Translations under genes and position numbers: made by a program
Part shown: positions 1 through 15,142 of the stretch, one piece after another
Numbering within the stretch: position 1 is the stretch's first letter
Layout: each line of letters starts with the position of its first letter
IMG/VR virus record: IMGVR_UViG_2537561684_000007
DNA: 15,142 nucleotides
Direction: 5' to 3' (one strand)
Source of the DNA: a virus
Lineage: Duplodnaviria > Heunggongvirae > Uroviricota > Caudoviricetes
Notes under the pieces: generated by a model
Seen by the model: only the letters and a program-made list of their open reading frames with translations
Database searches by the model: none
What the model was told of the DNA's origin: nothing

Positions 1-92
1 ATCTCAGTTAGTACCGCGGGAGTATTGGAATAGAGACTCATCCCTAGGTGATTTAGCACATTCAAATCAATTTTAATTTCGAAATCTGACAT
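1..92 (-). CDS. 5' end (first ~30 codons) of a cargo gene in the old/tin-equivalent slot; N-terminus resembles GHKL/Bergerat-fold ATPases; continues beyond the window start
   Basis: Minus-strand ATG at 92..90 preceded by AAGGAA 8 nt upstream. Translation MSDFEIKIDLNVLNHLGMSLYSNTPAVLTEI stays open to position 1. The LxHLxxSLYSNxxxxLxEI pattern resembles the HtpG/Hsp90-type N-terminal motif ([20 protein letters not shown], recalled). Lies in ~37% GC DNA next to cos. Too short for the supplied ORF track. Confidence 0.4.
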   Translation of the reverse strand, partial: MSDFEIKIDLNVLNHLGMSLYSNTPAVLTE

Positions 93-339
93 ATAGTCGT
101 TCCTTGCTGAGAGTTCATTTTAGTTTCATGCAATCAATAGCCACTTAGTGGTAAAGATAAAACCTTAAGATAACCAAAGCAAGTGTTCATTAGCGGCTTT
201 GTTTCATGACATGATGTGTGTCGCTTTTTGCATGAAACTGCATTTGTTTCTTATATCTGCTCTTTTTACATACTGCTAGTGTTGACATGGCTTTGACATG
301 GCTGTGCAACTGCATTAAAACCGCCCCATGAAGCGGGCG

Positions 340-358
340 GGCGAGGCGGGGAAAGCAC
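340..358. other. cos: P2-type cos site (19-nt cohesive end GGCGAGGCGGGGAAAGCAC)
   Basis: Exact match at 340..358 to the P2 cohesive-end sequence as I recall it; sits ~170 bp from the portal gene stop, as in P2. A GC hairpin (CCGCCC...GGGCGG, 321..339) lies directly to its left. Confidence 0.6.
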
Positions 359-500
359 TGCGCGCTGGCGGTGGTGCTGATTTTATTTTTTCAGCGTCTG
401 AGCGCGTCGTGATGGCGTTTAGATTGTTCGCCGGGGCGTTGGTGTGTCTGCGGGATGTTTTGTGCGGTGGTGAGCGTGTGAGGGCGTGATGACAGGGTGT

Positions 501-522
501 AAAAAAGCCGCCCGCAGGCGGC
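501..522 (-). terminator. Rho-independent terminator downstream of Q (minus strand)
   Basis: Perfect palindrome GCCGCC-CGCA-GGCGGC at 507..522 followed on the minus strand by a six-U tract (plus-strand A run 501..506), starting 5 nt after the Q stop codon (528..530). Confidence 0.7.
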
Positions 523-527
523 GATGT

Positions 528-1562
528 TCAGCCGTTGTCAGTGTCCAGTGAGTAGTTTTTAAAGCGGATGACCTCCTGACCGAGCCAGCCGTTTATCTCG
601 CGGATCCTGTCCTGTAACGGGATAAGTTCATTGCGGACAAAGACCTTTGCCACTTTCTCAATATCACCCAGCGACCCGACGTTCTCCGGCTTGCCACCCA
701 TCAACTGAAAGGGGATGCGGTGCGCGTCCAGCAGGTCTGCGGCACTGGCTTTTTTGATATTAAAAAAATCGTCCTTCGTCGCCACTTCACTGAGCGGGAT
801 AATTTTAATGCCGTCGGCTTTTCCCTGTGGGGCATAGAGAAACAGGTTTTTAAAGTTGTTGCGGCCTTTCGACTTGACCATGTTTTCGCGAAGCATTTCG
901 ATATCGTTGCGGTCCTGCACGGCATCGGTGACGTACATGATGTATCCGGCATGTGCGCCGTTTTCGTAATACTTGCGGCGGAACAGCGTGGCCGATTCAT
1001 TCAGCCAGGCAGAGTTAAGGGCGCTGAGATATTCCGGCAGACCGTACAGCTCCTGATTAATATCCGGCTCCAGCAGGTGAAACACGGAGCCGGGCGCGAA
1101 AGGTGTCGGCTCGTTGAAGGACGGCACCCACCAGTAAACATCCTCTTCCACGCCACGGCGGGTATATTTTGCCGGTGAGGTTTCCAGTCTGATGACCTTA
1201 CCGGTGGTGCTGTATCGCTTTTCCAGAAACGCATTACCGAACACCAGAAAATCCAGCACAAAGCGGTTGAAATCCTGCTGGGAAAGCCACGGATGCGGGA
1301 TAAATGTCGAGGCCAGAATATTACGTTTGACGTAAATCGGTGAGCTGTGATGCACGGCAGCACGCAGGCTTTTTGCCAGACCGGTAAAGCTGACCGGTGG
1401 CTCATACCATCTGCCGTTACTGATGCACTCGACGTAATCCAGAATGTCACGGCGGTCGAGTACCGGCACCGGCTCACCAAAGGTGAATGTCTCCATTTTC
1501 GGGGCGCTGGCGGTCATTGTTTTTGCCGCAGGTTGCGGTGTTTTCCCTTTTTTCTTGCTCAT
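528..1562 (-). CDS. Q: portal vertex protein (P2 gpQ-like)
   Basis: Intact 344-aa ORF, the same length as P2 Q; translation matches recalled P2 Q; ATG overlaps the stop of the upstream terminase gene (TGATG). Confidence 0.93.
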   Translation of the reverse strand: MSKKKGKTPQPAAKTMTASAPKMETFTFGEPVPVLDRRDILDYVECISNGRWYEPPVSFTGLAKSLRAAVHHSSPIYVKRNILASTFIPHPWLSQQDFNRFVLDFLVFGNAFLEKRYSTTGKVIRLETSPAKYTRRGVEEDVYWWVPSFNEPTPFAPGSVFHLLEPDINQELYGLPEYLSALNSAWLNESATLFRRKYYENGAHAGYIMYVTDAVQDRNDIEMLRENMVKSKGRNNFKNLFLYAPQGKADGIKIIPLSEVATKDDFFNIKKASAADLLDAHRIPFQLMGGKPENVGSLGDIEKVAKVFVRNELIPLQDRIREINGWLGQEVIRFKNYSLDTDNG

Positions 1563-3332
1563 CAGTAAAACTCCAGAATGGTGGATGTCAGCGGGGTGCT
1601 GATACCGGCGGTGAGTGGCTCATTTAACAGGGCGTGCATGGTTGCCCAGGCGAGGTCGGCGTGGCTGGCTTCCTCGCTGCGGCTGGCCTCATAGGTGGCG
1701 CTGCGTCCGCTGCTGGTATGGTCTTGCGGATAGCCATGAACGAGCTGGTGATGTCGGTGGCGCTGACGTCATATTCCAGACAGCCACGGCGAATAACGTC
1801 TTTTGCCTTGAGCACCATTGCGGTTTTCATTTCCGGCGTGTAGCGGATATCGCGCGCGGCGGGATAGAACGAGCGCACGAGCTGGAACACGCCGACACCG
1901 AGGCCGGTGGCATCAATACCGATGTATTCGACGTTGTATTTTTCGGTGAGTTTGCGGATGGATTCCGCCTGAGTGGCAAATCCATGCCTTTCCACTGGTG
2001 ACGCTCAAGTATTCTGAATTTGCCACCGGCCACCACCGGCGGTGCCAGTACCACGCATCCGGCGCTGTCGCCACGGTGTGACGGGTCGTAACCAATCCAT
2101 ACCGGACGTGAGCCGAACGGATTGGCGGCAAACGGCGCATAGTCTTCCCATTCTTCCAGCGTGTCGACCATGCAGCGTTGCAGCTCCTCAAACGGGAACA
2201 CCGATGCCTTGTCGTCAACAAATTCACACATGAACAGGTTTTTAAAATCGTCGGCGCTGTTTTCGCGTTTGAGCTGCTCAATGTCGAACAATGTGCAGCC
2301 GCCTTTCAGGGCGTCCTCAATGGTGACAATCTGCCGCCACTGGCCGTCCGCACAGAGAAGACCACCGGCAAGGGCGTTATGACTGACGTCGATTTCCACA
2401 CGTTCGGCGGCGCTGGCGCGTCCCCGGTTGAACAGTTCACCCGACCAGAACGGGTAGGCGTCGTGCGCCAGCGTGGACGGGGTGGAGAAATAGGTCGAGC
2501 GCAGGTGACTCTGTGAGGCCATACCTGATGCCACCTTACGCAGTACCTGAAAATTCGGGATCCAGAAAATCTCATCGACGTACAGGTCGCCGTTATGGCT
2601 CTGTGCGGTGTTGGAGTTGGTGCCGAGAAAAATCAGTTTTGCGCCGTTATTGCCCAGGACAATCGGGTCACCGGTCAGGTCAACGTCAACCAGCCGGGCA
2701 AAGGCGATGATGTATTCGCGGAACACATACGCCTGCGTTTTACTGGCCGACAGAAAAATCTGGTTATGACCGGTTTTCAGGGCGCGCAGCAGCGCCTCGC
2801 GGGAAAAATAAAACGTCGCGCCAATCTGGCGGGATTTCAGGATATCGCGGATGCGGTGCTCAAGCCCGGCGCGATACCAGCGCAACTGATATTCGAAAGA
2901 CTGCTCAAAGAAAATCTGCTCCAGCTTTTCGATGGCCTCGTCACTGAAAAAATTCTTTTTCGGTTTGCGACGCCCGCCTTTGTTGCGGTTAGCAACGTTC
3001 GGATTAAGGTCTGCCTCGTTGCCGGTCTGGCTGTAACGGTTGACCCGCGCCAGTCGTTCAATCTGGCGTCCGAGCAGGTCAATTTCCTTGAAGTCACCGC
3101 CGGTTTTCTGCGGTTTGATGATGAGCTGGGTCAGCCGCGCTTCCAGACTCATTTCGACACGGCTGATGGGAGCAACGCTGTCCCAGCCGTCGCGCTGTTT
3201 CCAGCTCTGCACCGTCGGGCGCTTCATCTGCAACATGGCGGCAATCTGCGGCACGGAAAATCCCTGCCAGTACAGCAGCGCCGCCTGACGACGCGGGTCG
3301 TGTAAAAGAGTGGTGTCTGTGGTGATGGTCAT
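1562..3332 (-). pseudogene. P: terminase large (ATPase) subunit, P2 gpP-like; interrupted by at least two frameshifts as read
   Basis: ATG at 3332 (MTITTD...) with GAGG upstream. N-terminal ~450 aa lie in the 511-aa ORF 1827..3362; the frame breaks near 1980 (read GATTTGCC where GATTTTGCC would keep HQWKGMD-FATQAES in frame). The next part (FATQAESIRKLTEKYNVEYIG...) is in ORF 1624..1995, and the likely true C-terminus (...LLNEPLTAGISTPLTSTILEFY) is in a third frame ending at TGA 1564..1562. Total span ~1770 nt, matching a ~590-aa P2 P. Confidence 0.85.
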
Positions 3333-3505
3333 GAATACCTCGCCGTGATGAATACACGGCAAGGCTACTGAGTCGCGCCCCGCGATTCGCTAAGGTGCTG
3401 TTGTGTCAGTGATAAGCCATCCGGGACTGATGGCGGAGGATGCGCATCGTCGGGAAACTGATGCCGACATGTGACTCCTCTAATCACTATTCAGGACTCC
3501 TGACA
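3333..3505. promoter_or_regulatory. divergent intergenic region between P (leftward) and O (rightward); expected location of Ogr-dependent late promoters
   Basis: 173-bp non-coding gap between divergently oriented late operons; in P2 this gap carries the PP and PO late promoters. I could not find a clean TGT-N12-ACA activator site by eye. Confidence 0.4.
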
Positions 3506-4359
3506 ATGGCAAAAAAAGTCTCAAAATTCTTTCGTATCGGCGTTGAGGGTGACACCTGTGACGGGCGTGTCATCAGTGCGCAGGATATTCAGGAAATGGC
3601 CGAAACCTTTGACCCGCGAGTCTATGGTTGCCGCATTAACCTGGAACATCTGCGCGGCATCCTGCCTGACGGTATTTTTAAGCGTTATGGCGATGTGGCC
3701 GAACTGAAGGCCGAAAAGATTGACGATGATTCGGCGCTGAAAGGCAAATGGGCGCTGTTTGCGAAAATCACCCCGACCGATGACCTTATCGCGATGAACA
3801 AGGCCGCGCAGAAGGTCTACACCTCAATGGAAATTCAGCCGAACTTTGCCAACACCGGCAAATGTTATCTGGTGGGGCTGGCCGTCACCGATGACCCGGC
3901 AAGCCTCGGCACGGAATACCTAGAATTCTGCCGCACGGCAAAACACAACCCCCTGAACCGCTTCAAATTAAGCCCTGAAAACCTGATTTCAGTGGCAACG
4001 CCCGTTGAGCTGGAATTTGAAGACCTGCCTGAAACCGTGTTCACCGCCCTGACCGAAAAGGTGAATCCATTTTTGGCCGCAAACAGGCCAGCGATGACGC
4101 CCGTCTGAATGACGTGCATGAAGCGGTGACCGCTGTTGCTGAACATGTGCAGGAAAAACTGAGCGCCACTGAGCAGCGCCTCGCTGAGATGGAAACCGCT
4201 TTTTCCGCACTTAAGCAGGATGTGACTGACAGGGCGGATGAAACCAGCCAGGCATTCACCCGCCTGAAAAACAGTCTCGACCACACCGAAAGTCTGACCC
4301 AGCAGCGCCGCAGCAAGGCCACCGGTGGTGGCGGTGACGCCCTGATGACGAACTGCTGA
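3506..4359 (+). pseudogene. O: capsid scaffolding protein (P2 gpO-like); one frameshift as read
   Basis: MAKKVSKFFRIGVEGDTCDGRV... from ATG 3506 (inside ORF 3440..4108). Frame breaks near 4064 (GTGAATCC, where GTGAAATCC would continue as KVKSIFGRKQASDDARLNDVHEAV). C-terminal part is ORF 4114..4359. Span 854 nt versus 855 for a 284-aa protein. Confidence 0.85.
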
Positions 4360-4417
4360 CCGGCGTCAGTCAGTCCGGGAAAACCTTCACGATTAACCCT
4401 TAATTTCAGGAAAAACT

Positions 4418-5491
4418 ATGCGCCAGGAAACCCGCTTTAAATTTAATGCCTACCTGTCCCGTGTTGCCGAACTGAACGGCATCGACGCCGGTGATGTGTC
4501 GAAAAAATTCACCGTTGAACCGTCGGTCACCCAGACCCTGATGAACACCATGCAGGAGTCCTCTGACTTTCTGACCCGCATCAACATTGTGCCGGTCAGC
4601 GAAATGAAAGGGGAAAAAATTGGTATCGGTGTCACCGGCTCCATCGCCAGCACCACCGACACCGCCGGTGGCACCGAGCGTCAGCCGAAGGACTTCTCGA
4701 AGCTGGCGTCTAACAAGTACGAATGCGACCAGATTAACTTCGATTTTTATATCCGCTACAAAACGCTTGACCTGTGGGCGCGTTATCAGGATTTCCAGCT
4801 CCGTATCCGTAACGCCATTATCAAACGCCAGTCCCTTGATTTCATCATGGCCGGTTTTAACGGCGTGAAGCGTGCCGAAACCTCTGACCGCAGCAGCAAT
4901 CCGATGCTACAGGATGTGGCGGTCGGCTGGCTGCAGAAATACCGCAATGAAGCCCCGGCGCGCGTGATGAGCAAGGTCACTGACGAGGAAGGGCACACGA
5001 CCTCTGAGGTCATCCGCGTGGGTAAGGGCGGTGATTATGCCAGCCTCGATGCACTGGTGATGGATGCGACCAACAACCTGATTGAGCCGTGGTATCAGGA
5101 AGACCCTGACCTTGTGGTGATTGTGGGGCGTCAGCTACTGGCGGACAAGTATTTCCCCATCGTTAACAAGGAGCAGGACAACAGCGAGATGCTGGCCGCT
5201 GACGTTATCATCAGCCAGAAACGCATCGGCAACCTGCCGGCGGTACGCGTCCCGTACTTCCCGGCGGATGCGATGCTCATCACGAAGCTGGAAAACCTGT
5301 CCATCTACTACATGGATGACAGCCATCGCCGCGTGATTGAGGAAAACCCGAAACTCGACCGCGTGGAGAACTACGAGTCAATGAACATTGATTACGTGGT
5401 GGAGGACTACGCCGCCGGTTGTCTGGTGGAAAAAATTAAGGTCGGTGATTTCTCCACACCGGCTAAGGCGACCGCAGAGCCGGGAGCGTAA
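4418..5491 (+). CDS. N: major capsid protein (P2 gpN-like)
   Basis: Intact 357-aa ORF with AGGA upstream; length and sequence match recalled P2 N. Confidence 0.93.
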   Translation: MRQETRFKFNAYLSRVAELNGIDAGDVSKKFTVEPSVTQTLMNTMQESSDFLTRINIVPVSEMKGEKIGIGVTGSIASTTDTAGGTERQPKDFSKLASNKYECDQINFDFYIRYKTLDLWARYQDFQLRIRNAIIKRQSLDFIMAGFNGVKRAETSDRSSNPMLQDVAVGWLQKYRNEAPARVMSKVTDEEGHTTSEVIRVGKGGDYASLDALVMDATNNLIEPWYQEDPDLVVIVGRQLLADKYFPIVNKEQDNSEMLAADVIISQKRIGNLPAVRVPYFPADAMLITKLENLSIYYMDDSHRRVIEENPKLDRVENYESMNIDYVVEDYAAGCLVEKIKVGDFSTPAKATAEPGA

Positions 5492-5494
5492 CCG

Positions 5495-6228
5495 ATGACG
5501 AGTCCCGCACAGCGCCACATGATGCGGGTCTCGGCAGCGATGACCGCGCAGCGGGAAGCCGCCCCGCTGCGACATGCAACTGTCTATGAGCAGATGCTGG
5601 TAAGCTCGCCGCAGACCAGCGCACACTGAAAGCGATTTATTCAAAAGAGCTGAAGGCCGCGAAAAAACGCGAACTGCTGCCGTTCTGGTTGCCGTGGGTG
5701 AACGGCGTGCTGGAGCAGGGCAAAGGTGCACAGGATGACATTCTGATGACGGTCATGCTGTGGCGTCTGGATACCGGCGATATTGCCGGTGCGCTGGAGA
5801 TTGCCCGTTATGCCCTGAAGTACGGTCTGACCATGCCGGGAAACACCGCCGCACCCCGCCGTACATGTTCACCGAGGAGGTGGCGCTGCGGCCATGCGGC
5901 TCACGCTGCCGGTGATCGTGGATCCCGCCTGCTGACGGACACCCTTGAACTGACTGCCACGGCAGACATGCCTGATGAAGTGCGCGCAAAGCTGCACAAA
6001 ATCACCGGTCTGTTTCTGCGTGACCGGTGATGCCGCGGTGCGCTGGCGCACCTGCAACGTGCGACACAGCTCGACTGTCAGGCAGGCGTCAAAAAAGAGA
6101 TTGAACGACTGGAGCGGGAGCTGAAACCGAAGCCGGAGCCGCAACCCAAAGCGGCCACCCGTGCCACGCGTAAGACCCGGAGTGCGACACCGGCAAAACG
6201 TGGACGCCCGAAAAAGAAAACCAGTTAA
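5495..6228 (+). pseudogene. M: terminase small (endonuclease) subunit (P2 gpM-like); at least three frameshifts as read
   Basis: ATG 5495 (MTSPAQRHMMRVSAAMTAQREAAPLRHATVYEQMLV...), GGAG upstream. Frame breaks at ~5603 (TGGTAAGCTC where TGGTAAAGCTC would give KLAADQRTLKAIY). Middle is in ORF 5689..6030 with an internal garbled stretch; C-terminus (...KRGRPKKKTS) is in another frame ending TAA 6226..6228. Span is not a multiple of 3. Confidence 0.8.
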
Positions 6229-6327
6229 CAACCGAATGCGCCCCGCGCCAGGGCGGCACGCCGGTCAGTGAGGGTGAATCACCTGACACTGCACCGGCGT
6301 CCACCGCCCGACTTTTCTGAGGTAGTC

Positions 6328-6827
6328 ATGATGACGCTGATTATTCCGCGAAAGGAGGCTCCCGTGTCCGGTGAGGGTACGGTGGTCATCCCGCAACCGG
6401 CAGGCGACGAGCCGGTGATTAAAAACACGTTCTTTTTTCCCGATATCGACCCGAAGCGCGTCCGGGAACGTATGCGCCTTGAGCAGACCGTCGCCCCGCC
6501 CGTCTGCGTGAGGCCATCAAGTCAGGCATGGCGAACGAATGCGGAGCTGTACGAGTACCGCGAACAGAAAATTGCCGCCGGTTTTACGCGTCTGGCGACG
6601 TCCCGGCGGACGAATCGACGGTGAAAGCATCAAGGTTTTTTACTACGAGCGCGCCGTGTGTGCGATGGCGACCGCGTCGCTTTATGAGCGTTATCGCGGC
6701 GTGGATGCCAGTGCGAAAGGCGACAAAAGGCCGACAGCATGACAGCACCATTGATGATGTGGCGGGATATGCGCTGGGCGGTGGCGCGCATCCAGGACAA
6801 GCCGCGCTGCATCGTGAGTCAAATCTG
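6328..6827 (+). pseudogene. L: head completion/stabilisation protein (P2 gpL-like); several frameshifts as read
   Basis: ATG 6328 (MMTLIIPRKEAPVSGEGTVVIPQPAGDEPVIKNTFFFPDIDPKRVRERMRLEQTVAP...) inside ORF 6268..6624. Later segments in other frames (ESIKVFYYERAVCAMATASLYERYRGVDASAKGDK in ORF 6539..6742; ...CIVSQI ending TGA 6825..6827, overlapping the X start as TGATG). Confidence 0.8.
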
Positions 6828-7031
6828 ATGAAGACCTTTGCGCTACAGGGCGACACGCTCGACGCCATTTGTGTCCGGTATTACGGGCGCACTGAGGGCG
6901 TGGTTGAGACCGTGCTCGCCGCAAATCCGGGACTGGCTGAACTGGGTGCGGTGCTGCCACACGGCACCGCCGTCGAACTGCCCGACGTTCAGACCGCGCC
7001 CGTGGCTGAAACTGTCAATCTGTGGGAGTAA
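6828..7031 (+). CDS. X: tail protein X (P2 gpX-like)
   Basis: 67-aa intact reading frame MKTFALQGDTLDAICVRYYGRTEGVVETVLAANPGLAELGAVLPHGTAVELPDVQTAPVAETVNLWE; it is the 3' end of the longer artefactual ORF 6528..7031. Confidence 0.85.
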   Translation: MKTFALQGDTLDAICVRYYGRTEGVVETVLAANPGLAELGAVLPHGTAVELPDVQTAPVAETVNLWE

Positions 7032-7034
7032 CGC

Positions 7035-7316
7035 ATGACAGCAGAAGAAAAAAGCGTCCTGTCGCTTTTCATGATTGGGGTGCTGATTGTTGTCGGCAAG
7101 GTGCTTGCCGGTGGTGAACCCATCACCCCGCGTCTGTTTATCGGACGCATGTTGCTCGGTGGTTTTGTCTCGATGGTTGCCGGTGTTGTTCTGGTGCAGT
7201 TTCCTGACCTGTCACTGCCTGCGGTGTGCGGCATCGGCTCCATGCTGGGTATCGCCGGTTATCAGGTGATTGAGATTGCCATTCAGCGCCGCTTTAAGGG
7301 CAGGGGGAAACCGTAA
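7035..7316 (+). CDS. Y: holin (P2 gpY-like)
   Basis: Intact 93-aa ORF, hydrophobic, same length as P2 Y; stop overlaps K start (TAATG). Confidence 0.9.
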   Translation: MTAEEKSVLSLFMIGVLIVVGKVLAGGEPITPRLFIGRMLLGGFVSMVAGVVLVQFPDLSLPAVCGIGSMLGIAGYQVIEIAIQRRFKGRGKP

Positions 7317-7811
7317 TGCCGGTAATTAACACGCATCAGAATATCGCCGCCTTTCTCGACATGCTGGCGGTGTCCGAAGGGACGGCGAATCATCCGCTGA
7401 CGAAAAACCGGGGCTATGACGTGATAGTCACCGGACTGGACGGAAAGCCGGAAATTTTCACCGACTACAGTGACCACCCGTTCGCGCATGGCCGACCGGC
7501 GAAGGTGTTTAACCGTCGCGGTGAAAAATCCACGGCTTCCGGTCGCTATCAGCAGCTTTACCTGTTCTGGCCGCATTACCGCAAACAGCTTGCCCTGCCG
7601 GATTTCAGTCCGTTGTCACAGGACAGACTCGCCATTCAGTTGATCCGCGAACGCGGTGCACTGGATGACATCCGGGCGGGACGCATTGAGCGCGCCATTT
7701 CACGCTGTCGCAATATCTGGGCGTCCCTGCCGGGTGCCGGTTACGGTCAGCGTGAGCATTCACTGGAAAAACTGGTCACCGTCTGGCGTACCGCGGGGCG
7801 TACCGGCTTAA
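7316..7811 (+). pseudogene. K: endolysin (P2 gpK-like); frameshift near the 3' end as read
   Basis: MPVINTHQNIAAFLDMLAVSEGTANHPLTKNRGYDVIVTGLDGKPEIF... from ATG 7316. The reading frame runs through into lysA (ORF 7316..8041); the probable native stop is TAA 7809..7811 in a neighbouring frame (…TAGGVPA). Span 496 nt versus 498 for a 165-aa protein. Confidence 0.8.
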
Positions 7812-7825
7812 ACGGAGTAAACACC

Positions 7826-8241
7826 ATGAAGAAATTATCCCTTTCACTGATGCTGAACGTGTCGCTGGCGCTGATGCTGGCACTGTCCCTGATTTACCCG
7901 CAGAGCGTGGCCGTCAGTTTTGTCGCCACCTGGGCGATTCTGGGACGGTTATCTGTGTGGTTGCCGGTGGTGTCGGCGTGTATGCCACGAGTATGTACTG
8001 AACGCTACGGGCGGGAGCTGCCCCGGAATCGCTGGCCGTGAAGATTGTCACGCGCTGTTTTTGCAGCCGGTGCCGTGGCGCAGCGGCGGGCTCTGGTGTG
8101 ATGGTGGCGACATTTATCTCGCTGGTCGCTGCCGGGTGGATTTTTACCGCGCTGATTTATCTCGTGGCATCGGTGTTCTTCCGGCTGATACGTACGGCCT
8201 GCTGTCAGCGTTTTGAGGGGCGGGAACCATGTCAAAGCTGA
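7826..8241 (+). pseudogene. lysA: lysis timing membrane protein LysA-like; frameshifted as read
   Basis: ATG 7826 with GGAG 8 nt upstream; MKKLSLSLMLNVSLALMLALSLIYPQSVAV... Hydrophobic segments are split across three frames (ORFs 7316..8041, 7920..8216, 8038..8241); last fragment ends TGA 8239..8241. Confidence 0.65.
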
Positions 8242-8680
8242 TGATTGTGCTGGTGTGTTGTTATCCTGGCGGTGGCGGCTGTTTCTGGGAACAAAAAGCC
8301 AGCCTGCGCGCCTCGCTGGACAGGGCGAACAAGTCGCCAGCGGGCAGCAGACGACCATCACCATGCTGAAAAATCAGCTTCATGTTGCCCTCACCAGGGC
8401 AGACAAAAACGAGTGGCGCAGGTGGCACTGCGTCAGGAACTGGAAACGCCGCGAAGCGTGAAGCCAGCGCGAGAAAACCATCACGAGTTACTAATGAAAA
8501 CGAGATTTCCGCCGCTGGTATGGCGCTGACCTGCCTGATGCTGTGCGCCGGTTGCACCAGCGTCCGGCCTGCACCGACGCCAGTGATTGTCGCCAACGCC
8601 TGCCCGAAAGTGAGTCTTTGCCCGATGCCGGGCAGGACCCAGACGAACGGCGATTTAAGTGCCGATATCCGGCAGCTTGA
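8229..8680 (+). pseudogene. lysB: Rz-like i-spanin LysB; several frameshifts as read, 3' end uncertain
   Basis: ATG 8229 (MSKLMIVLV...); recognisable segments ASLRASLDRAN, ASGQQTTITMLKNQLHVALTRADKNE, VALRQELE, AAKREASARK are spread over three frames (ORFs 8213..8461, 8245..8529, 8382..8780). End coordinate is inferred from the expected ~141-aa length and the frame relationship to lysC. Confidence 0.55.
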
Positions 8681-8780
8681 GAACGCGCTGGCGCGCTGTG
8701 CCAGCCAGGTAAAAATGATTAAACACTGTCAGGACGAAAACGATGCTCAAACCCGACAGCCTGCGCAGGGCGCTGACTGA
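8520..8780 (+). CDS. lysC: Rz1-like o-spanin lipoprotein LysC (overlaps the 3' part of lysB in another frame)
   Basis: ATG 8520; MALTCLMLCAGC... has a lipobox (LCAGC) followed by a Pro-rich stretch (SVRPAPTPVIVANACPKVSLCPMPG); lies within ORF 8382..8780. Confidence 0.5.
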   Translation: MALTCLMLCAGCTSVRPAPTPVIVANACPKVSLCPMPGRTQTNGDLSADIRQLENALARCASQVKMIKHCQDENDAQTRQPAQGAD

Positions 8781-9199
8781 TGCCGTCACGGTGCTGAAAA
8801 CACCGAATGCTGCGGATATTCGTGGATACGGGAGTATTGCCTCCACCTGGCGCGTCGTTGTCATTCGAAAAGCGTTACACGCTCAATGTCATTGTGACCG
8901 ACTTTACCGGTGATTTTGACCTGCTCATCGTGCCGGTGCTGGCGTGGCTGCGGGTAAATCAGCCCGACATCATGACCACCGACGAGGCAGAAAAAGGGCT
9001 TCACGTTTTATGCAGACATCAACAATGACAGCAGCTTTGATATCAGATCAGCCTGATGCTGACCGAGCGCACGCTGGTCAGTGAGGTGGACGGCGCGCTG
9101 CATGTGAAGAATATCCCGGAACCTCCGCCGCCGGAGCCGGTCACCCGCCCGATGGAGCTGTATATCAATGGCGAACTCGTGAGTAAGTGGGATGAATGA
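8743..9199 (+). pseudogene. R: tail completion protein (P2 gpR-like); frameshifted as read
   Basis: ATG 8743 with AGGA upstream (MLKPDSLRRALTDAVTVLK...). Middle part is in ORF 8807..9028 (SFEKRYTLNVIVTDFTGDFDLLIVPVLAWLR); C-terminus (...PMELYINGELVSKWDE) ends TGA 9197..9199, overlapping the S start. Confidence 0.75.
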
Positions 9200-9644
9200 G
9201 TTTAAGCGTTTTGAAGACCGGCTGACCGGACTTATTGAATCGCTGTCACCGTCAGGGCGTCGGCGACTGAGCGCCGAACTGGCGAAACGTCTGCGGCAGA
9301 GTCAGCAGCGCCGGGTGATGGCACAGAAAGCCCCGGACGGCACACCCTACGCACCACGCCAGCAGCAGAGCGCCAGAAAAAAGACCGGTCGCGTTAAGCG
9401 AAAAATGTTTGCGAAACTTATCACCAGTCGTTTTTTGCATATCCGCGCCAGCCCTGAACAGGCATCAATGGAGTTTTACGGCGGGAAGTCACCGAAAATA
9501 GCCAGTGTGCATCAGTTCGGTCTGTCGGAAGAAACCCGGAAAGACGGTAAGAAAATTGATTATCCGGCGCGTCCTCTGCTCGGCTTTACCGGTGAGGATG
9601 TGCAGATGATTGAAGAGATTATCCTGGCTCACCTCGACCGTTAG
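9192..9644 (+). CDS. S: tail completion protein (P2 gpS-like)
   Basis: Intact 150-aa ORF, same length as P2 S; translation matches recalled P2 S. Confidence 0.9.
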   Translation: MNEFKRFEDRLTGLIESLSPSGRRRLSAELAKRLRQSQQRRVMAQKAPDGTPYAPRQQQSARKKTGRVKRKMFAKLITSRFLHIRASPEQASMEFYGGKSPKIASVHQFGLSEETRKDGKKIDYPARPLLGFTGEDVQMIEEIILAHLDR

Positions 9645-9710
9645 TTGTGCCATTCCCGACACCTCATCGTTACATTGCCGCCGGTATGACCCGGCGGCAT
9701 CCTTCCCGTT
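9645..9710 (+). promoter_or_regulatory. S-V intergenic region; expected position of the late promoter for the V-W-J-I-H-G operon
   Basis: 66-bp gap. Contains a partial dyad TGT-N10-ACA (9646..9661) and an 8-bp GC hairpin GCCGCCGG/CCGGCGGC (9677..9698). In P2 a late promoter lies in front of V. Confidence 0.3.
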
Positions 9711-10333
9711 ATGAACACTCTCGCAAATATCCAGGAACTCGCGCGCGCACTGCGCAACATGATCCGCACCGGCCTTGTCGTCGAAACCAACCTTAAAGCC
9801 GGTCGCTGCCGTGTGCAGACCGGCGGCATGTGCACCGACTGGCTTCAGTGGCTGACTCGTGCCGGGCGTTCGCGCACTGGTGGGCACCTTCCGTGGGGGA
9901 CAGGTGCTGATTCTGGCCGTGGGCGGTGAACTGACACGGCGTTCGTTCTGCCGGGGATTTATTCCGGGATAACCCCGCGCCGTCTGCGTCGGCGGATGCC
10001 CTGCATATCCGTTTCCCTGACGGGGCGGTGATTGATATGAACCGAAACCAGCGCACTCACGGTAAGCGGAATTAAAACGGCCAGCGTGACGGCTTCTGAT
10101 TCTGTTACTGCCACGGTGCCGGTGGTCAGGTGAAAGCATCAACCCGCGTACCCTGGACACACCGGAGGTGGTTGCACCAACAGGCTGATTACGGCACGCT
10201 GGAAGTGCAGAAGGGCGGGACGATGCGCGGCAACATTGAACACACCGGCGGTGAACTCTCATCAAACGGTAAGGTACTGCATACCCATAAACACCCCGGC
10301 GACAGCGGCGGCACAACCGGGAGCCCTCTATGA
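9711..10333 (+). pseudogene. V: baseplate spike/assembly protein (P2 gpV-like); frameshifted as read
   Basis: N-terminus in ORF 9711..9929 (MNTLANIQELARALRNMIRTGLVVETNLKAGRCRVQTGGMCTDWLQWLTRAGRSRT), C-terminus in ORF 10130..10333 (...TLEVQKGGTMRGNIEHTGGELSSNGKVLHTHKHPGDSGGTTGSPL); the middle is out of frame. Confidence 0.8.
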
Positions 10334-10677
10334 CAGCGCGTTATCTCGGAATGAATCGCAGTGATGGCCTGACGGTCACTGACCTTGAGCATATCAGCCA
10401 GAGTATCGGCGATATCCTGCGCACACCGGTCGGCTCACGGGTGATGCGTCGTGATTACGGCTCGTTGCTGGCGTCAATGATTGACCAGCCGCAGACCCCG
10501 GCGCTTGAGTTGCAGATTAAGGTCGCCTGTTACATGGCGGTGCTGAAATGGGAACCCCGCGTCACGCTGTCATCTGTCACCACGGCGCGCAGTTTTGACG
10601 GGCGAATGACGGTCACGTTAACCGGCCAGCACAACGACACCGGCCAGCCACTTTCATTAACCATCCCTGTGAGTTGA
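10330..10677 (+). CDS. W: baseplate wedge protein (P2 gpW-like)
   Basis: Intact 115-aa ORF, same length as P2 W; ATGA overlap with V stop. Confidence 0.9.
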   Translation: MTARYLGMNRSDGLTVTDLEHISQSIGDILRTPVGSRVMRRDYGSLLASMIDQPQTPALELQIKVACYMAVLKWEPRVTLSSVTTARSFDGRMTVTLTGQHNDTGQPLSLTIPVS

Positions 10678-10681
10678 AACC

Positions 10682-11581
10682 ATGCCGATTATCGACCTGA
10701 ACCAGCTACCCGCACCGGATGTGGTCGAGGAGCTGGACTTTGAAACCATTCTTGCCGAACGCAAGGCGACACTGATTTCTCTTTACCCGGAAGACCAGCA
10801 GGAGGCGGTCGCCCGTACCCTGACGCTGGAATCTGAGCCTCTCGCCAAACTGCTGGAGGAAAATGCTTATCGTGAGCTTATCTGGCGTCAGCGTGTGAAT
10901 GAGGCCGCACGGGCGGTGATGCTGGCCTGTGCCGCCGGTAATGACCTTGATGTGATTGGTGCCAATTACAACACCACGCGCCTGATTATTACTCCGGCAG
11001 ATGATTCGACCATCCGCCGACACCGGCAGTGATGGAATCTGACACGATTATCGTCTGCGTATTCAGCAGGCGTTTGAGGGCTTAAGCGTCGCCGGGTCGG
11101 TGGGTGCTTATCAGTATCATGGTCGCAGTGCCGACGGGCGTGTCGCGGATATTCTGTACCAGTCCGTCTCCGGCCTGCGTCACCATCTCGTGCTGTCACG
11201 TGAAAATAACGGTGTGCATCCGAAGACTGCTGGCGGGTGCGTAACGCCCTTAATGGCGAGGACGTCAGGCCGGTGGCCGACCGCGTGACCGTGCAGTCTG
11301 CCGCCATTGTTGAATACCAGATAAACGCCACGCTTTACCTTTACCCTGGTCCCGAAAGCGAACCCATCCGCGCTGCCGCCGTGAAAAAACTGGAAGCGTA
11401 TATCACGGCACAGCACCGGCTGGGGCGTGACATCCGTCTGTCTGCCATTTATGCCGCTTTGCATGTGGAAGGTGTGCAGCGTGTCGAACTGGCTGCACCA
11501 CTGGCCGACATCGTGCTCAACAGTACGCAGGCGTCTTTCTGTACCGAATACCGCGTCGTGACCGGAGGCTCGGATGAGTGA
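10682..11581 (+). pseudogene. J: baseplate protein (P2 gpJ-like); several frameshifts as read
   Basis: N-terminus in ORF 10682..11032 (MPIIDLNQLPAPDVVEELDFETILAERKATLISLYPEDQQEAVARTLTLESEPLAKLLEENAYRELIWRQRVNEAARAVMLACAAGNDLDVIGANYNTTRLIITPADDSTI), middle fragment in ORF 11100..11288, C-terminus in ORF 11237..11581. Confidence 0.8.
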
Positions 11582-12104
11582 TTCGCGACTGCTGCCGACC
11601 GGCTCATCACCGCTTGAGGTCGCCGCCGCAAAAGCCTGTGCGGAAATTGAAAAAACGCCGGTCAGTATTCGTGAGCTGTGGAACCCGGATACCTGTCCGG
11701 CAAATCTGCTGCCGTGGCTGGCGTGGGCGTTTTCGGTCGACAGGTGGGATGAAAAGTGGCCGGAAGCGACAAAACGCGCCGTTATCCGCGATGCCTATTT
11801 CATCCACTGTCATAAAGGCACAATAGGTGCAATCCGGCGTGTGGTGGAGCCGCTCGGCTATCTCATCAACGTGACGGAGTGGTGGGAAAACAGTGACCCG
11901 CCCGGCACCTTCCGGCTTGATATTGGTGTACTGGAAAGTGGCATCACAGAGGCAATGTATCAGGAAATGGAACGGCTGATTGCTGATGCCAAACCTGCAA
12001 GCCGCCACCTTATTGGCCTGAACATTACCCGGGACATTCCCGGCTACCTGTTCGCCGGTGGTGTGGCTTACGACGGCGATGTAATTACGGTTTATCCCGG
12101 ATAA
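11574..12104 (+). CDS. I: baseplate/tail fibre attachment protein (P2 gpI-like)
   Basis: Intact 176-aa ORF, same length as P2 I; overlaps J stop. Confidence 0.9.
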   Translation: MSDSRLLPTGSSPLEVAAAKACAEIEKTPVSIRELWNPDTCPANLLPWLAWAFSVDRWDEKWPEATKRAVIRDAYFIHCHKGTIGAIRRVVEPLGYLINVTEWWENSDPPGTFRLDIGVLESGITEAMYQEMERLIADAKPASRHLIGLNITRDIPGYLFAGGVAYDGDVITVYPG

Positions 12105-12114
12105 GTGAGGAATA

Positions 12115-14400
12115 ATGAGCACAAAATTCAGAACCGTTATCACCACTGCCGGTGCAGCAAAGCTGGCAGCGGCAACCGCACCGGGAGGGCGGAAGGTCAA
12201 TATTACCACGATGGCCGTCGGGGATGGCGGTGGTAAATTGCCTGTCCCGGATGCCGGACAGACCGGGCTTATCCACGAAGTCTGGCGACATGCGCTGAAC
12301 AAAATCAGCCAGGACAAACGAAACAGTAATTATATTATCGCAGAGCTGGTTATTCCGCCGGAGGTGGGCGGTTTCTGGATGCGTGACTTGGCCTGTACGA
12401 TGATGCGGGAACTAATTGCCGTGGCGAACATGGCCGAAAGTTATAAGCCAGCCTTGCCGAAGGCTCAGGGCGTTCGCAGACCTGCGCATGGTCATCATCG
12501 TCAGCAGTGTGGCCTCAGTGGGCTGACCATTGACACCACAACGGTGATGGCACGCAGGATTACGTTGATGACAAAATTGCAGACATGAACAGTCACGACG
12601 TCACCCGACGCCTCGCTGACCGCAAAAGGTTTTACTCAGTTAAGCATGCGACCAACAGCACGTCTGAAACACTGGCCGCAACGCCGAAAGCGGTAAAGGC
12701 CGCGTATGACTTGCTAACGGGAAATAACGCCAGGAGCCACCAAGCGCGAAAAGGCCTTGTCCAGCTCAGTAGGCCACCAACAGCACGTCTGAAACGCTGC
12801 GCAACCCAAAGCGGTAAAGGCAGCATATGACCTGCTAACGGGAAATAACGCACAGGAGCCACCACGCGCGAAAAGGTCTTGTCCAGCTCAGTAGCGCACC
12901 AACAGCGATTCTGAAACGCTTGCGGCAACGCCAAAGGCGGTTAAGACAGCGTATGACCTTGCTAACGGGAAATACACTGCACAGGAGCCACCACGCGCGA
13001 AAGGTCTTGTCAGCTCAGTAGCGCCACCAACAGGATTCTGAAACGCTGGCGCAACATCAAAAGCGGTGAAGTCTGCCTATGACAATGCTGAAAAACGTCT
13101 TCAGAAAGATCAGAACGGTGCGGATATTCCGGGAAAGGATACCTTCACGAAAAATATCGGTGCCTGTCGTGCTTATAGCGGCGCTTTGAGCACTGAAGCC
13201 GGAAACTGGACAACCGCTCAGTTTATTGAATGGCTGGATTCCCGTGGTGCATTTAATCATCCGTACTGGATGTGCAAAGGCTCCTGGTCATATGCAAATA
13301 ACAAAATCATTACGGATACCGGATGTGGTGATATCCACCTGGCTGGTTGTGTCGTCGAGGTCATGGGAACTAAATCTGCAATCACTATCCGAGTGACCAC
13401 GCCGACAACATCAAGCGGTGGCGGTACAACCAGCGCGCAATTCACTTACATTAATCATGGGGACGGCTACTCCCCCGGCTGGCGTCGTGACTGGAATCGT
13501 CAGGGCGACGCAATGACCGGAACGATTAATCAGGATGGCGGAAGCCAGAATGCCTATATGTCTACGGCCTTATGTTCAGGCACCAGAGGCGGCAAAAAAT
13601 ATCTCAGAAAGTTTCGTGGTGGAGAAGGAGACACTATCTGGCATGAAACAGTACAGGGCGGGGTAATTCGCTGGGCGACAGGAAACTATGACGCTCAGGA
13701 AGAATTATCACTCAGCTCCGCTTATGGTCTCCGTTCAAGAGGTGAGATTACATCACTCAGTGCTAATGGTCTGCGCATTGCTTATGGCAATTATGGATTC
13801 TTTATCAGGAATGATGGCGGCAGCACATATTTAATGCTGACGGCCTCTGGCGATAAATTTGGGACATGGAACGGTTTAAGGCCGCTGACTATCAATAACG
13901 CTAATGGCGGAGTATCAATGGGGCATGGCCTGAGTGTTACTGGTGATATTGCCTCAAGTACCAAAGTACGTGCCGGTAGCGGGAAAAAATTCACGGTCAG
14001 CAGCAGTAATACATCCACGAAGGAAGCCGCATTCAATTTGTGGGGAAACTCAAGTCGTCCGGTGGTGGCTGAATTAGGTGATGATGCAGGCTGGCATTTT
14101 TACAGTCAGAGAAATACAGATAACAGCATCACTTTTGCTGTTAACGGGCAGGTATCACCATCTAACTATGGCAACTTTGATTCACGCTATGTCCGGGATA
14201 TCCGGCTTGGTGGTGCTGCCACATACAAACCTGCGAACAATGGCATGACATGGACACATCAGGCACCGTCCGGGTGTGTATATTCCGGCATTATTGTTCA
14301 GGATACCGGCTCAAACTCTGCCGATAACATTGGTGGCATATATTACAGACCGGTGCAGAAATACATTAACGGGACATGGTATAACGTGGCGCAGGTATAA
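12115..14400 (+). pseudogene. H: tail fibre protein (P2 gpH-like), mosaic; 5' third frameshifted as read, 3' 444 codons intact
   Basis: N-terminus in ORF 12115..12588 (MSTKFRTVITTAGAAKLAAATAPGGRKVNITTMAVGDGGGKLPVPDAGQTGLIHEVWRHALNKISQDKRNSNYIIAELVIPPEVGGFWMR...). 12628..13060 is a tandem repeat block with frame-breaking length differences. ORF 13066..14400 is intact and ends ...YRPVQKYINGTWYNVAQV. Total ~2.29 kb, longer than the ~2.0 kb expected for P2 H. Confidence 0.8.
12628..13060 (+). repeat. about 3.5 tandem copies of a ~125-nt coding repeat inside H (SSATNSTSETLAATPKAVKAAYDL-type tail fibre repeat)
   Basis: Unit starts at roughly 12628, 12753, 12875 and 13003 (spacings 125, 122, 128 nt); each unit contains variants of ACCAACAGCACGTCTGAAAC...GCGGTAAAGGC...TATGAC. 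Confidence 0.8.
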
Positions 14401-14403
14401 TTT

Positions 14404-14931
14404 ATGCAGCATTTGATAAATATAACGGTGGGTAATCCAAAAACGGTTGAACAATATCAATTGACAAAGGATTTTGATGTTGTCTGGTTTTTTACAGAAG
14501 ATGGTAAGAACTGGTACGAAGAACAAAAGTATTTTGCTGATGACACGATAAAAATAGCGTACGACAAAGATAATATCATCCGCTATGTGGAAAAGGATGT
14601 GACAGCTATCAGACCGGATGGATTAAGTGTGGTTGAAGTGGCGGATATTACTGCTAACCGACGGGCGGATATTTCAGGGGGCTGGATGTTTAAGGACGGC
14701 AAAGTGATTAAACGCATTTATACGGCAGATGAATTGCGGCGGCAGGCAGAAATTCGGAAAGTCAGACTTCTTGCAGATGCTGAATCCGTGATTTTGCCGC
14801 TGGAGCGCGCTGTCAGGCTGAACATGGCAACAGATGAGGAGCGTAGCCGACTGGAAGCATGGGAGCGTTACAGCGTTCTGGTCAGTCGTGTGGATCCTGC
14901 AAATCCTGAATGGCCGGAAATGCCGCAATAA
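14404..14931 (+). CDS. G: tail fibre assembly chaperone (P2 gpG/Tfa-like)
   Basis: Intact 175-aa ORF directly after H; AT-rich like the 3' end of H. Confidence 0.88.
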
Positions 14932-14965
14932 GTTGTATGAGTTCTGGTGTGAGCTTACACATCTA

Positions 14966-15007
14966 TGGCACAGAGTAAAGCCTAATCTGACAGTTCGCTC
15001 TGTGCCA
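14966..15007. repeat. perfect 10-bp inverted repeat TGGCACAGAG-N22-CTCTGTGCCA just downstream of G
   Basis: Arms at 14966..14975 and 14998..15007; no T tract follows, so not a typical intrinsic terminator. Lies in the ~38% GC non-coding tail of the window. Confidence 0.6.
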
Positions 15008-15142
15008 GAAACAGACGTCACTTATATATTTCTGTATTAATCAATGAGGAAAGATTCAATTCTCTATAATGGAGGTTGCGTCCACTGTTTTCTCTAAGCA
15101 GACCAAGTTCCCTTAACGAAAAATTTAGTGTCAGAAACTAAT

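Follow-up and report, generated by a model that had tools for sequence, protein, structure and literature searches.

The left end of the contig studied here lies inside a gene that is read away from the cos site of a P2-like prophage, and the question is what this gene encodes and what it does in the slot it occupies. The window, meaning the whole stretch of DNA that was analysed, is the complete draft contig AQCB01000052.1 (15,142 bp) of assembly GCA_000359075.1, and the minus-strand gene at positions 1-92 thus truly runs off the available sequence. An earlier note, made from the letters alone, took it for the start of a GHKL-type ATPase gene in the P2 old/tin hotspot and for the best candidate for an undescribed anti-phage system. 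The evidence reviewed below makes it highly probable that positions 1-92 are the start of a restriction endonuclease gene belonging to a two-gene restriction-modification cassette in the gpA-cos hotspot of a P2-like prophage.

The Left Edge of the Contig

The GC content is 36.9% at positions 1-301 as opposed to 55.5% at positions 302-15142. In 200-nt windows, positions 1-200 and 101-300 both have 36.5% GC, while those farther along have 53-62%. As expected of cargo in the P2 tin/old hotspot, the segment is set off from the backbone by its composition (36.9% against 53-55%), and the earlier description of the left edge as about 37% GC and unlike the phage genes holds.

Translation of the minus strand from position 92 (ATG at 92-90) gives MSDFEIKIDLNVLNHLGMSLYSNTPAVLTE, which is 30 codons followed by the AT of codon 31. 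Direct reading of the same strand shows a Shine-Dalgarno-like AAGGAA at 105-100, with a spacing of 7 nt to the start codon. Both the translation and the AAGGAA agree with the start that had been proposed, and the gene does run out of the window, which is the whole contig. A bare open frame of 30 codons at an edge is in itself little evidence for a gene. This one is backed by the identity of positions 1-140 to the corresponding region of strain CFSAN061771, described below, and by the family-conserved peptide TPAVLTEI. By its translation and by this identity, the segment 1-92 (minus strand; codons 1-30 and two further nucleotides) holds the 5' end of a gene for a restriction enzyme of the BbrUII/HgiDII family, for which paraMORC3 is another name. 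Within it are the N-terminal strap, which is strongly conserved, and Glu30, with which GHKL motif I (E-x3-N-x2-D) opens.

Upstream of the gene, positions 93-301 (minus strand) form an AT-rich, cargo-specific region that matches solely genomes with the same cassette. The conserved right end of the P2 backbone is found at 302-339, beside cos and with a GC hairpin at 321-340, and it marks the boundary between cargo and backbone; P2-like phages with other cargo match the window from 302-305 onward only. P2 itself reads tgcattaaaaccgccccgtgaagcgggcgg in the region equivalent to 302-339. The P2-type cos with its 19-nt cohesive end GGCGAGGCGGGGAAAGCAC is located at 340-358 (plus strand) and agrees letter for letter with the cosR annotated in P2 (NC_001895). 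The portal gene gpQ at 528-1562 (minus strand), a 344-aa ORF matching Pfam PF04860 (Phage_portal) and annotated as portal in the relatives, is the conserved limit of the P2 hotspot on its right side.

The canonical record NC_001895 was used as the P2 reference for the old slot instead of NC_070906, which is labelled 'Peduovirus P2' and does not contain old/tin. In NC_001895 old is also encoded on the minus strand, with its start codon about 195 bp to the left of cosR, and is read in the direction away from cos. The slot and the orientation are thus those of old, the first gene to the left of cos, as had been suggested. With cos at 340-358, the portal gene at 528-1562 and gpA on the far side in the relatives, the cassette is located in the P2 tin/old hotspot, between gpA and cos/gpQ, and the placement made from the letters alone was correct.

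The Cassette in Near Relatives

Positions 1-520 have full-length matches in 30 of the 5,426 complete genomes searched, all of them E. coli, with 94-98% identity. Positions 1-339 are found in the same 30 genomes and in one phage record, Escherichia phage PhiR44_1, with about 98% identity. The relative from strain CFSAN061771 was aligned base by base, and bases 1-140 are 100% identical to it. In this strain the gene encodes the 652-aa protein WP_001279022.1, which is annotated as a "BbrUII/HgiDII family restriction enzyme" and is named "ATP-binding protein" in other RefSeq records. The order is gpA (replication endonuclease), a convergent gene encoding a 349-aa DNA cytosine methyltransferase (WP_000598783.1), the gene for WP_001279022.1, and cos. 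The part of the gene beyond codon 30 and the methyltransferase gene are known from such relatives, identical over the shared 140 bp. Among the matches listed, all ten contexts of the exact 652-aa protein show the portal gene, the restriction gene, a convergent Dcm and gpA.

The GenBank record of PhiR44_1 names the two proteins "ParaMORC3" and "Dcm protein"; a literature search found no paper on PhiR44. The exact pair WP_000598783 and WP_001279022 is also present among the P2 hotspot arrangements in Table S5A of Rousset et al. (2022), and the gpA-gpQ locus of P2 is an established anti-phage hotspot (PMC9122126).

The sole notable difference from CFSAN061771 within positions 1-339 is a 13-nt patch at 141-153, where the window has CCACTTAGTGGTA, with the palindrome CCACT-T-AGTGG inside, in place of GTTAGGCTG. 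When one genome per species was scanned for exact matches to the window variant of positions 125-170, no other copy was found.

Quality of the Contig and State of the Gene

In comparison with the closest E. coli prophage (CFSAN061771, 96.4% identity), about 98 single bases are missing from the contig, and there are no insertions on a comparable scale. The deletions are found within positions 1700-12400, for instance at 1717, 1980, 4065, 5601-6036, 6493-6757, and 7794-8802, and they are clustered, e.g., between 5,600 and 8,800. Many P2 late genes, such as those for terminase, scaffold and head completion, appear split into two ORFs by such deletions, which looks like consensus error in a draft assembly rather than gene decay. 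With a contig of this quality, the restriction gene need not be intact in this genome.

The copy might thus be a remnant, that is, truncated, frameshifted or recombined, and not a working system. The contig ends at codon 31, and a breakpoint or a truncation could sit just past the end; the single-base deletions and the many frameshifted P2 genes would also fit this explanation, as would the patch at 141-153 that differs from CFSAN061771. However, the deletions have the appearance of draft errors, positions 1-140 are without any difference from intact copies, and draft assemblies often have the cassette on short contigs, a pattern that agrees with breaks close to the repeated P2 backbone. When the rest of the gene was looked for in the same assembly by means of the exact 652-aa protein, none of the places returned were from GCA_000359075.1. 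We consider it rather unlikely that the gene is a remnant, and the copy in this genome is probably complete.

Some GC-rich palindromes are rare in the window as a whole. GCCGGC is found once, while 19 occurrences are expected from a maximal-order Markov estimate, and CAGCTG, GGCGCC, AGCGCT, CGGCCG, and TGGCCA are all absent, with 6-9 expected of each by the same estimate. Such strong avoidance of GC-rich 6-bp palindromes in the P2-like late region would fit selection over a long time against type II restriction sites.

Domains of the Full-Length Enzyme

The full-length relative WP_001279022.1, whose first 30 codons are identical to those in the window, scores 751.4 bits over residues 4-651 against NF050001, the NCBIfam equivalog model restrict_BbrUII, and this full-length score is above the cut-off of 550 bits that defines the family. 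The NCBIfam models for HtpG, MutL, and MzaB match the protein weakly. Pfam HATPase_c_3 matches residues 26-149 with an E-value of 2e-25, and HATPase_c matches too. The partner gene product matches Pfam DNA_methylase (PF00145) with an E-value of 9e-56, and PADLOC calls the pair a type II restriction-modification system (REase_II, 2e-91; MTase_II, 2e-88).

Conservation was studied in an alignment of 33 homologues with 44-100% identity. The first 31 residues belong to the best-conserved part of the protein, with D9, N11, L13-G17, L20, Y21, and T24-I31 being invariant. All four GHKL motifs (I, E-x3-N-x2-D; II, DxGxG; III, GxxGxG; IV, T) are present and invariant in 33 of the 33 sequences: E30, N34, and D37 in motif I, D58, G60, and G62 in motif II, G96-K102 in motif III, and G157 and T158 in motif IV. 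Of the motif I residues, E30 alone falls inside the window. Four residues of the C-terminal part, D532, E546, K548, and Q562, do not vary either. By the motif definitions of Gu et al. (preprint, 10.1101/2023.08.10.552793), D532, E546, and K548 constitute a predicted PD-(D/E)xK signature, and Q562 corresponds to the extra glutamine found in Shedu.

An AlphaFold2 model of the full-length protein has a mean pLDDT of 79.9, and a Foldseek search aligned it with the N-terminal and middle domains of Hsp90, TRAP1, and GRP94 over 400-470 columns, with E-values of 1e-13 to 1e-14. Residues 440-652 were modelled separately (pLDDT 76). The best PDB match of this model is the B. cereus Shedu nuclease (8ti9_C), and it is a weak one, with an E-value of 4e-3, a probability of 0.99 and TM-scores of 0.43/0.48; EcoO109I, EndoMS/NucS, and other PD-(D/E)xK enzymes are also matched. 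Pfam SduA_C (DUF4263, PF14082) gives no match to the E. coli protein even at E-values up to 10, and it matches nine of the 33 homologues, the best with an E-value of 1.8e-6. Searches of PDB sequences, both with the whole protein and with a profile of its C-terminal part, returned only the GHKL domains of Hsp90, TRAP1, and MutL, and nothing for the nuclease domain. Pfam searches with the C-terminal and middle segments taken separately had no informative result. Taken together, the enzyme is composed of a GHKL ATPase, an Hsp90/S5-like middle domain and a PD-(D/E)xK nuclease, probably of a divergent Shedu type. paraMORC3 has the same composition, with an S5-like domain between GHKL and a C-terminal nuclease of the RE fold that has D-ExK.

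The GHKL or Bergerat-fold assignment of the earlier note, which had been made from the N-terminal residues, is thus upheld by the HATPase_c_3 match of the full-length relative, by the weaker HtpG and MutL matches, and by the Hsp90-like model. The same applies to its impression that the protein is unlike P2 Old, as Pfam and NCBIfam give matches to GHKL-type ATPases only and the DNA similarity to P2 stops at the base pairs next to cos.

Linkage to a Methyltransferase

As mentioned above, the exact E. coli protein is found together with a convergent Dcm. Orthologues with 82, 77, and 68% identity occupy the same slot in P2-like prophages of Pantoea, Serratia, and Proteus, and these loci also have an adjacent m5C methyltransferase gene, some of them with extra small cargo genes. 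More distant relatives were found by scanning one genome per species for two conserved peptides, TPAVLTEI (residues 24-31) and MGRKGIGK; 579 of the 600 stretches that matched either peptide encode a relative. Eighty distant loci with 34-43% identity, from many bacterial phyla and from archaea, were kept. An m5C methyltransferase gene is found within 3.5 kb at 67 of these 80 loci and usually adjoins the gene for the enzyme, the methyltransferase gene being mostly directly upstream and co-directional. Most of these methyltransferases match the Dcm of the E. coli cassette with E-values of about 1e-100 to 1e-134. Of the 13 loci without an m5C methyltransferase, the upstream flank is cut short in four, and an N6/N4 methyltransferase is close by in one. 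The restriction-modification pair is an ancient, mobile two-gene module, and the cognate DNA methyltransferase expected beside a BbrUII/HgiDII enzyme is encoded next to the relatives of the gene studied here, i.e., outside the window.

Two cases deserve mention in their own right. The archaeal metagenome-assembled genome 'uncultured Cenarchaeum sp.' (OY282369.1) has at least five separate copies of the GHKL-nuclease family on one chromosome. None of the five is directly beside an m5C methyltransferase gene; four are without any within 3.5 kb, and the fifth has one 1.4 kb away. In V. cholerae (ABJTBP010000026.1, 6001-7979) a homologue with 60% identity is found beside a CI-type repressor and a gpA-like replication gene in a phage-like element. 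No methyltransferase gene was found in the 6 kb upstream of this homologue, and the contig ends at the gene.

The domain composition appears to be shared with Shedu type 1D proteins such as V. cholerae VcSduA, which have a GHKL domain, a middle domain and a DUF4263-like nuclease (10.1101/2023.08.10.552793; PMC12137116). The motif I glutamate and the ExK lysine are conserved in both. VcSduA defends on its own, its protection is non-abortive, and mutation of either the motif I glutamate or the ExK lysine, in the equivalent mutants E27A and K557A, abolishes defence (PMC12137116). The gene might accordingly encode a stand-alone nuclease of this type, where a GHKL sensor gates the DUF4263 nuclease and methylation plays no role in telling self from non-self, and the V. 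cholerae homologue with no methyltransferase gene in its 6 kb of upstream sequence would fit this reading. However, only the upstream side of that homologue is visible, and an m5C methyltransferase gene adjoins in all the E. coli contexts listed and in the Pantoea, Serratia, and Proteus orthologues, as well as being present at the 67 distant loci. VcSduA, in contrast, works as a single gene with no methyltransferase reported. Furthermore, the E. coli protein passes the restriction-enzyme equivalog model NF050001. A stand-alone Shedu nuclease therefore appears improbable, and the linkage across loci is the strongest argument for the logic of restriction-modification over that of a lone sensor nuclease.

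Relationship to Previously Described Enzymes

The restriction-modification cassette has been described from several sides. Orlowski and Bujnicki (2008; PMC2441816) reported a GHKL domain at the N-terminus of R.HgiDII, together with a C-terminal domain that could not be assigned at the time. The same year Iyer, Abhiman and Aravind (PMC2292703) named paraMORC3, with a GHKL domain, an S5 domain and an RE-fold nuclease, in restriction-modification operons. The E. coli enzyme shares with paraMORC3 both the order of the domains, with E-D-ExK motifs, and the occurrence in laterally mobile restriction-modification operons with cytosine methylases, and PhiR44_1 uses the same name. Nothing substantive separates the two, and paraMORC3 is a second name for the BbrUII/HgiDII family.

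The likeness to R.HgiDII and R.BbrUII comprises the end-to-end match of the relative to NF050001, the N-terminal GHKL domain as in R.HgiDII, and an adjacent m5C methyltransferase of the M.HgiDII type. There are also differences. The partner of BbrUII is an N6-adenine methyltransferase (PMC5829577), while that of the P2 cassette is an m5C enzyme, and the type of modification thus varies within the family. The two genes of the P2 cassette are convergent, while the methyltransferase gene of the distant loci is mostly upstream and co-directional. Unlike R.HgiDII and R.BbrUII, the P2 cassette is prophage-borne and not chromosomal.

P2 Old and the cassette enzyme are encoded in the same slot and orientation, as the first gene left of cos and transcribed away from it, and both are nuclease-type cargo for lysogenic conversion. 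Old, however, consists of an ABC ATPase and a Toprim nuclease, while the cassette enzyme combines GHKL with PD-(D/E)xK and does not belong to the OLD family. The DNA similarity between the two loci is limited to the last 35-38 bp beside cos.

The family, the cassette and its location in the hotspot have all previously been on record. That the gene should represent an anti-phage system with a GHKL ATPase that had not been described before, as the earlier note proposed with only the N-terminus visible in the window, is therefore extremely unlikely: a literature search found no mechanistic or biochemical study of GHKL-containing restriction enzymes, but NCBIfam, PADLOC and, according to the name of the model, REBASE all have a name for the family, it is described in two publications (PMC2441816; PMC2292703), the relative passes NF050001 and is called with its partner as a type II endonuclease and methyltransferase by PADLOC, the GenBank record of PhiR44_1 says "ParaMORC3", and the pair is present in the catalogue of P2 hotspot cargo (PMC9122126).

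Sequence Motifs Upstream of the Restriction Gene

The region between the restriction gene and cos contains several repeated motifs. A perfect 12-nt inverted repeat, AGTTTCATGCAA at 122-133 and TTGCATGAAACT at 228-239, has its arms 94 nt apart. The distal arm is included in an ATGCA-N5-CATGCA motif at 221-243, which can be aligned between the cassettes of E. coli, Pantoea, and Serratia. The cassette has no gene for a C-protein, and the inverted repeat together with the ATGCA-N5-CATGCA motif may be a candidate regulatory site. An exact tandem duplication of TTGACATGGCT is found at 282-303, on the boundary between cargo and backbone at about 302, and could be either a scar left by recombination or an element that resembles a promoter (TTGACA) and points towards cos. 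A scan of positions 1-560 for the sigma-70 consensus found no promoter.

The pentamer TGCAT/ATGCA occurs four times in positions 93-339, where 0.56 occurrences are expected (p about 0.01). Upstream of old in P2 (NC_001895, 6882-7075), where the cargo is unrelated, it occurs five times with 0.38 expected (p about 0.001). In the other prophages, where the stretches compared include 3750-4000 of loci L097 and L098, there are five occurrences between the first hotspot gene and cos in Pantoea, five in Serratia and one in Proteus. The enrichment could reflect an operator or an accessory site for packaging.

Proposed Mechanism and Significance

In the proposed mechanism the convergent 349-aa cytosine-5 DNA methyltransferase, encoded just outside the window, would mark a recognition site on the DNA of both the host and the prophage. 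The restriction enzyme would then bind unmethylated incoming DNA, and ATP-driven dimerization of the GHKL domains would close a clamp and license the C-terminal nuclease to cut. A lysogen would in this way be shielded against infection by other phages, and there may be a penalty for losing the prophage. A literature search found no measured recognition sequence, ATP dependence or anti-phage activity for the E. coli enzyme.

The enzymes that have given the family its name, HgiDII and BbrUII, recognize GTCGAC according to REBASE, and by analogy with these the site of the E. coli enzyme may be the same. GTCGAC is found twice in the window, at 2163 and 11736. If it is the site, the phage would need its own methyltransferase. 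Depletion of GTCGAC was considered as a means of deriving the recognition site and was abandoned, as two occurrences against the roughly 4-6 expected are uninformative.

R.HgiDII is classed in REBASE as an orthodox type IIP enzyme, and this would count against an obligatory ATP step. On the other hand, the catalytic residues of the GHKL domain are invariant from E. coli to archaea, and it can be argued from this that ATP turnover matters. For paraMORC it has been proposed that an ATP-controlled GHKL dimer clamp governs the nuclease (PMC2292703), and control of this kind has been suggested for VcSduA as well. We tentatively suggest, while regarding it as somewhat doubtful, that the HgiDII-family 'type II' enzymes are ATP-gated clamps, like those of MutL, MORC, and Hsp90, that close around unmethylated DNA and license a Shedu-type nuclease.

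The lead that the left edge offered is closed rather than opened by these results, since it points to a restriction-modification cassette that already has a name, in a hotspot that has been mined before. Their main value is in annotation: the edge of the contig can be labelled as the 5' end of a restriction gene of the BbrUII/HgiDII family (paraMORC3) in a P2-like prophage. For the family they emphasize the combination of an Hsp90/MutL-type ATPase with what is probably a Shedu-type nuclease, and the tight link to an m5C methyltransferase across bacteria and archaea. The P2-borne copy, carried by E. coli in 30 of the 5,426 complete genomes searched, would be a convenient model for the question of what the ATPase does. 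If the reading as an ATP-gated clamp is true, the family would be a mechanistic bridge between restriction-modification and Shedu immunity.
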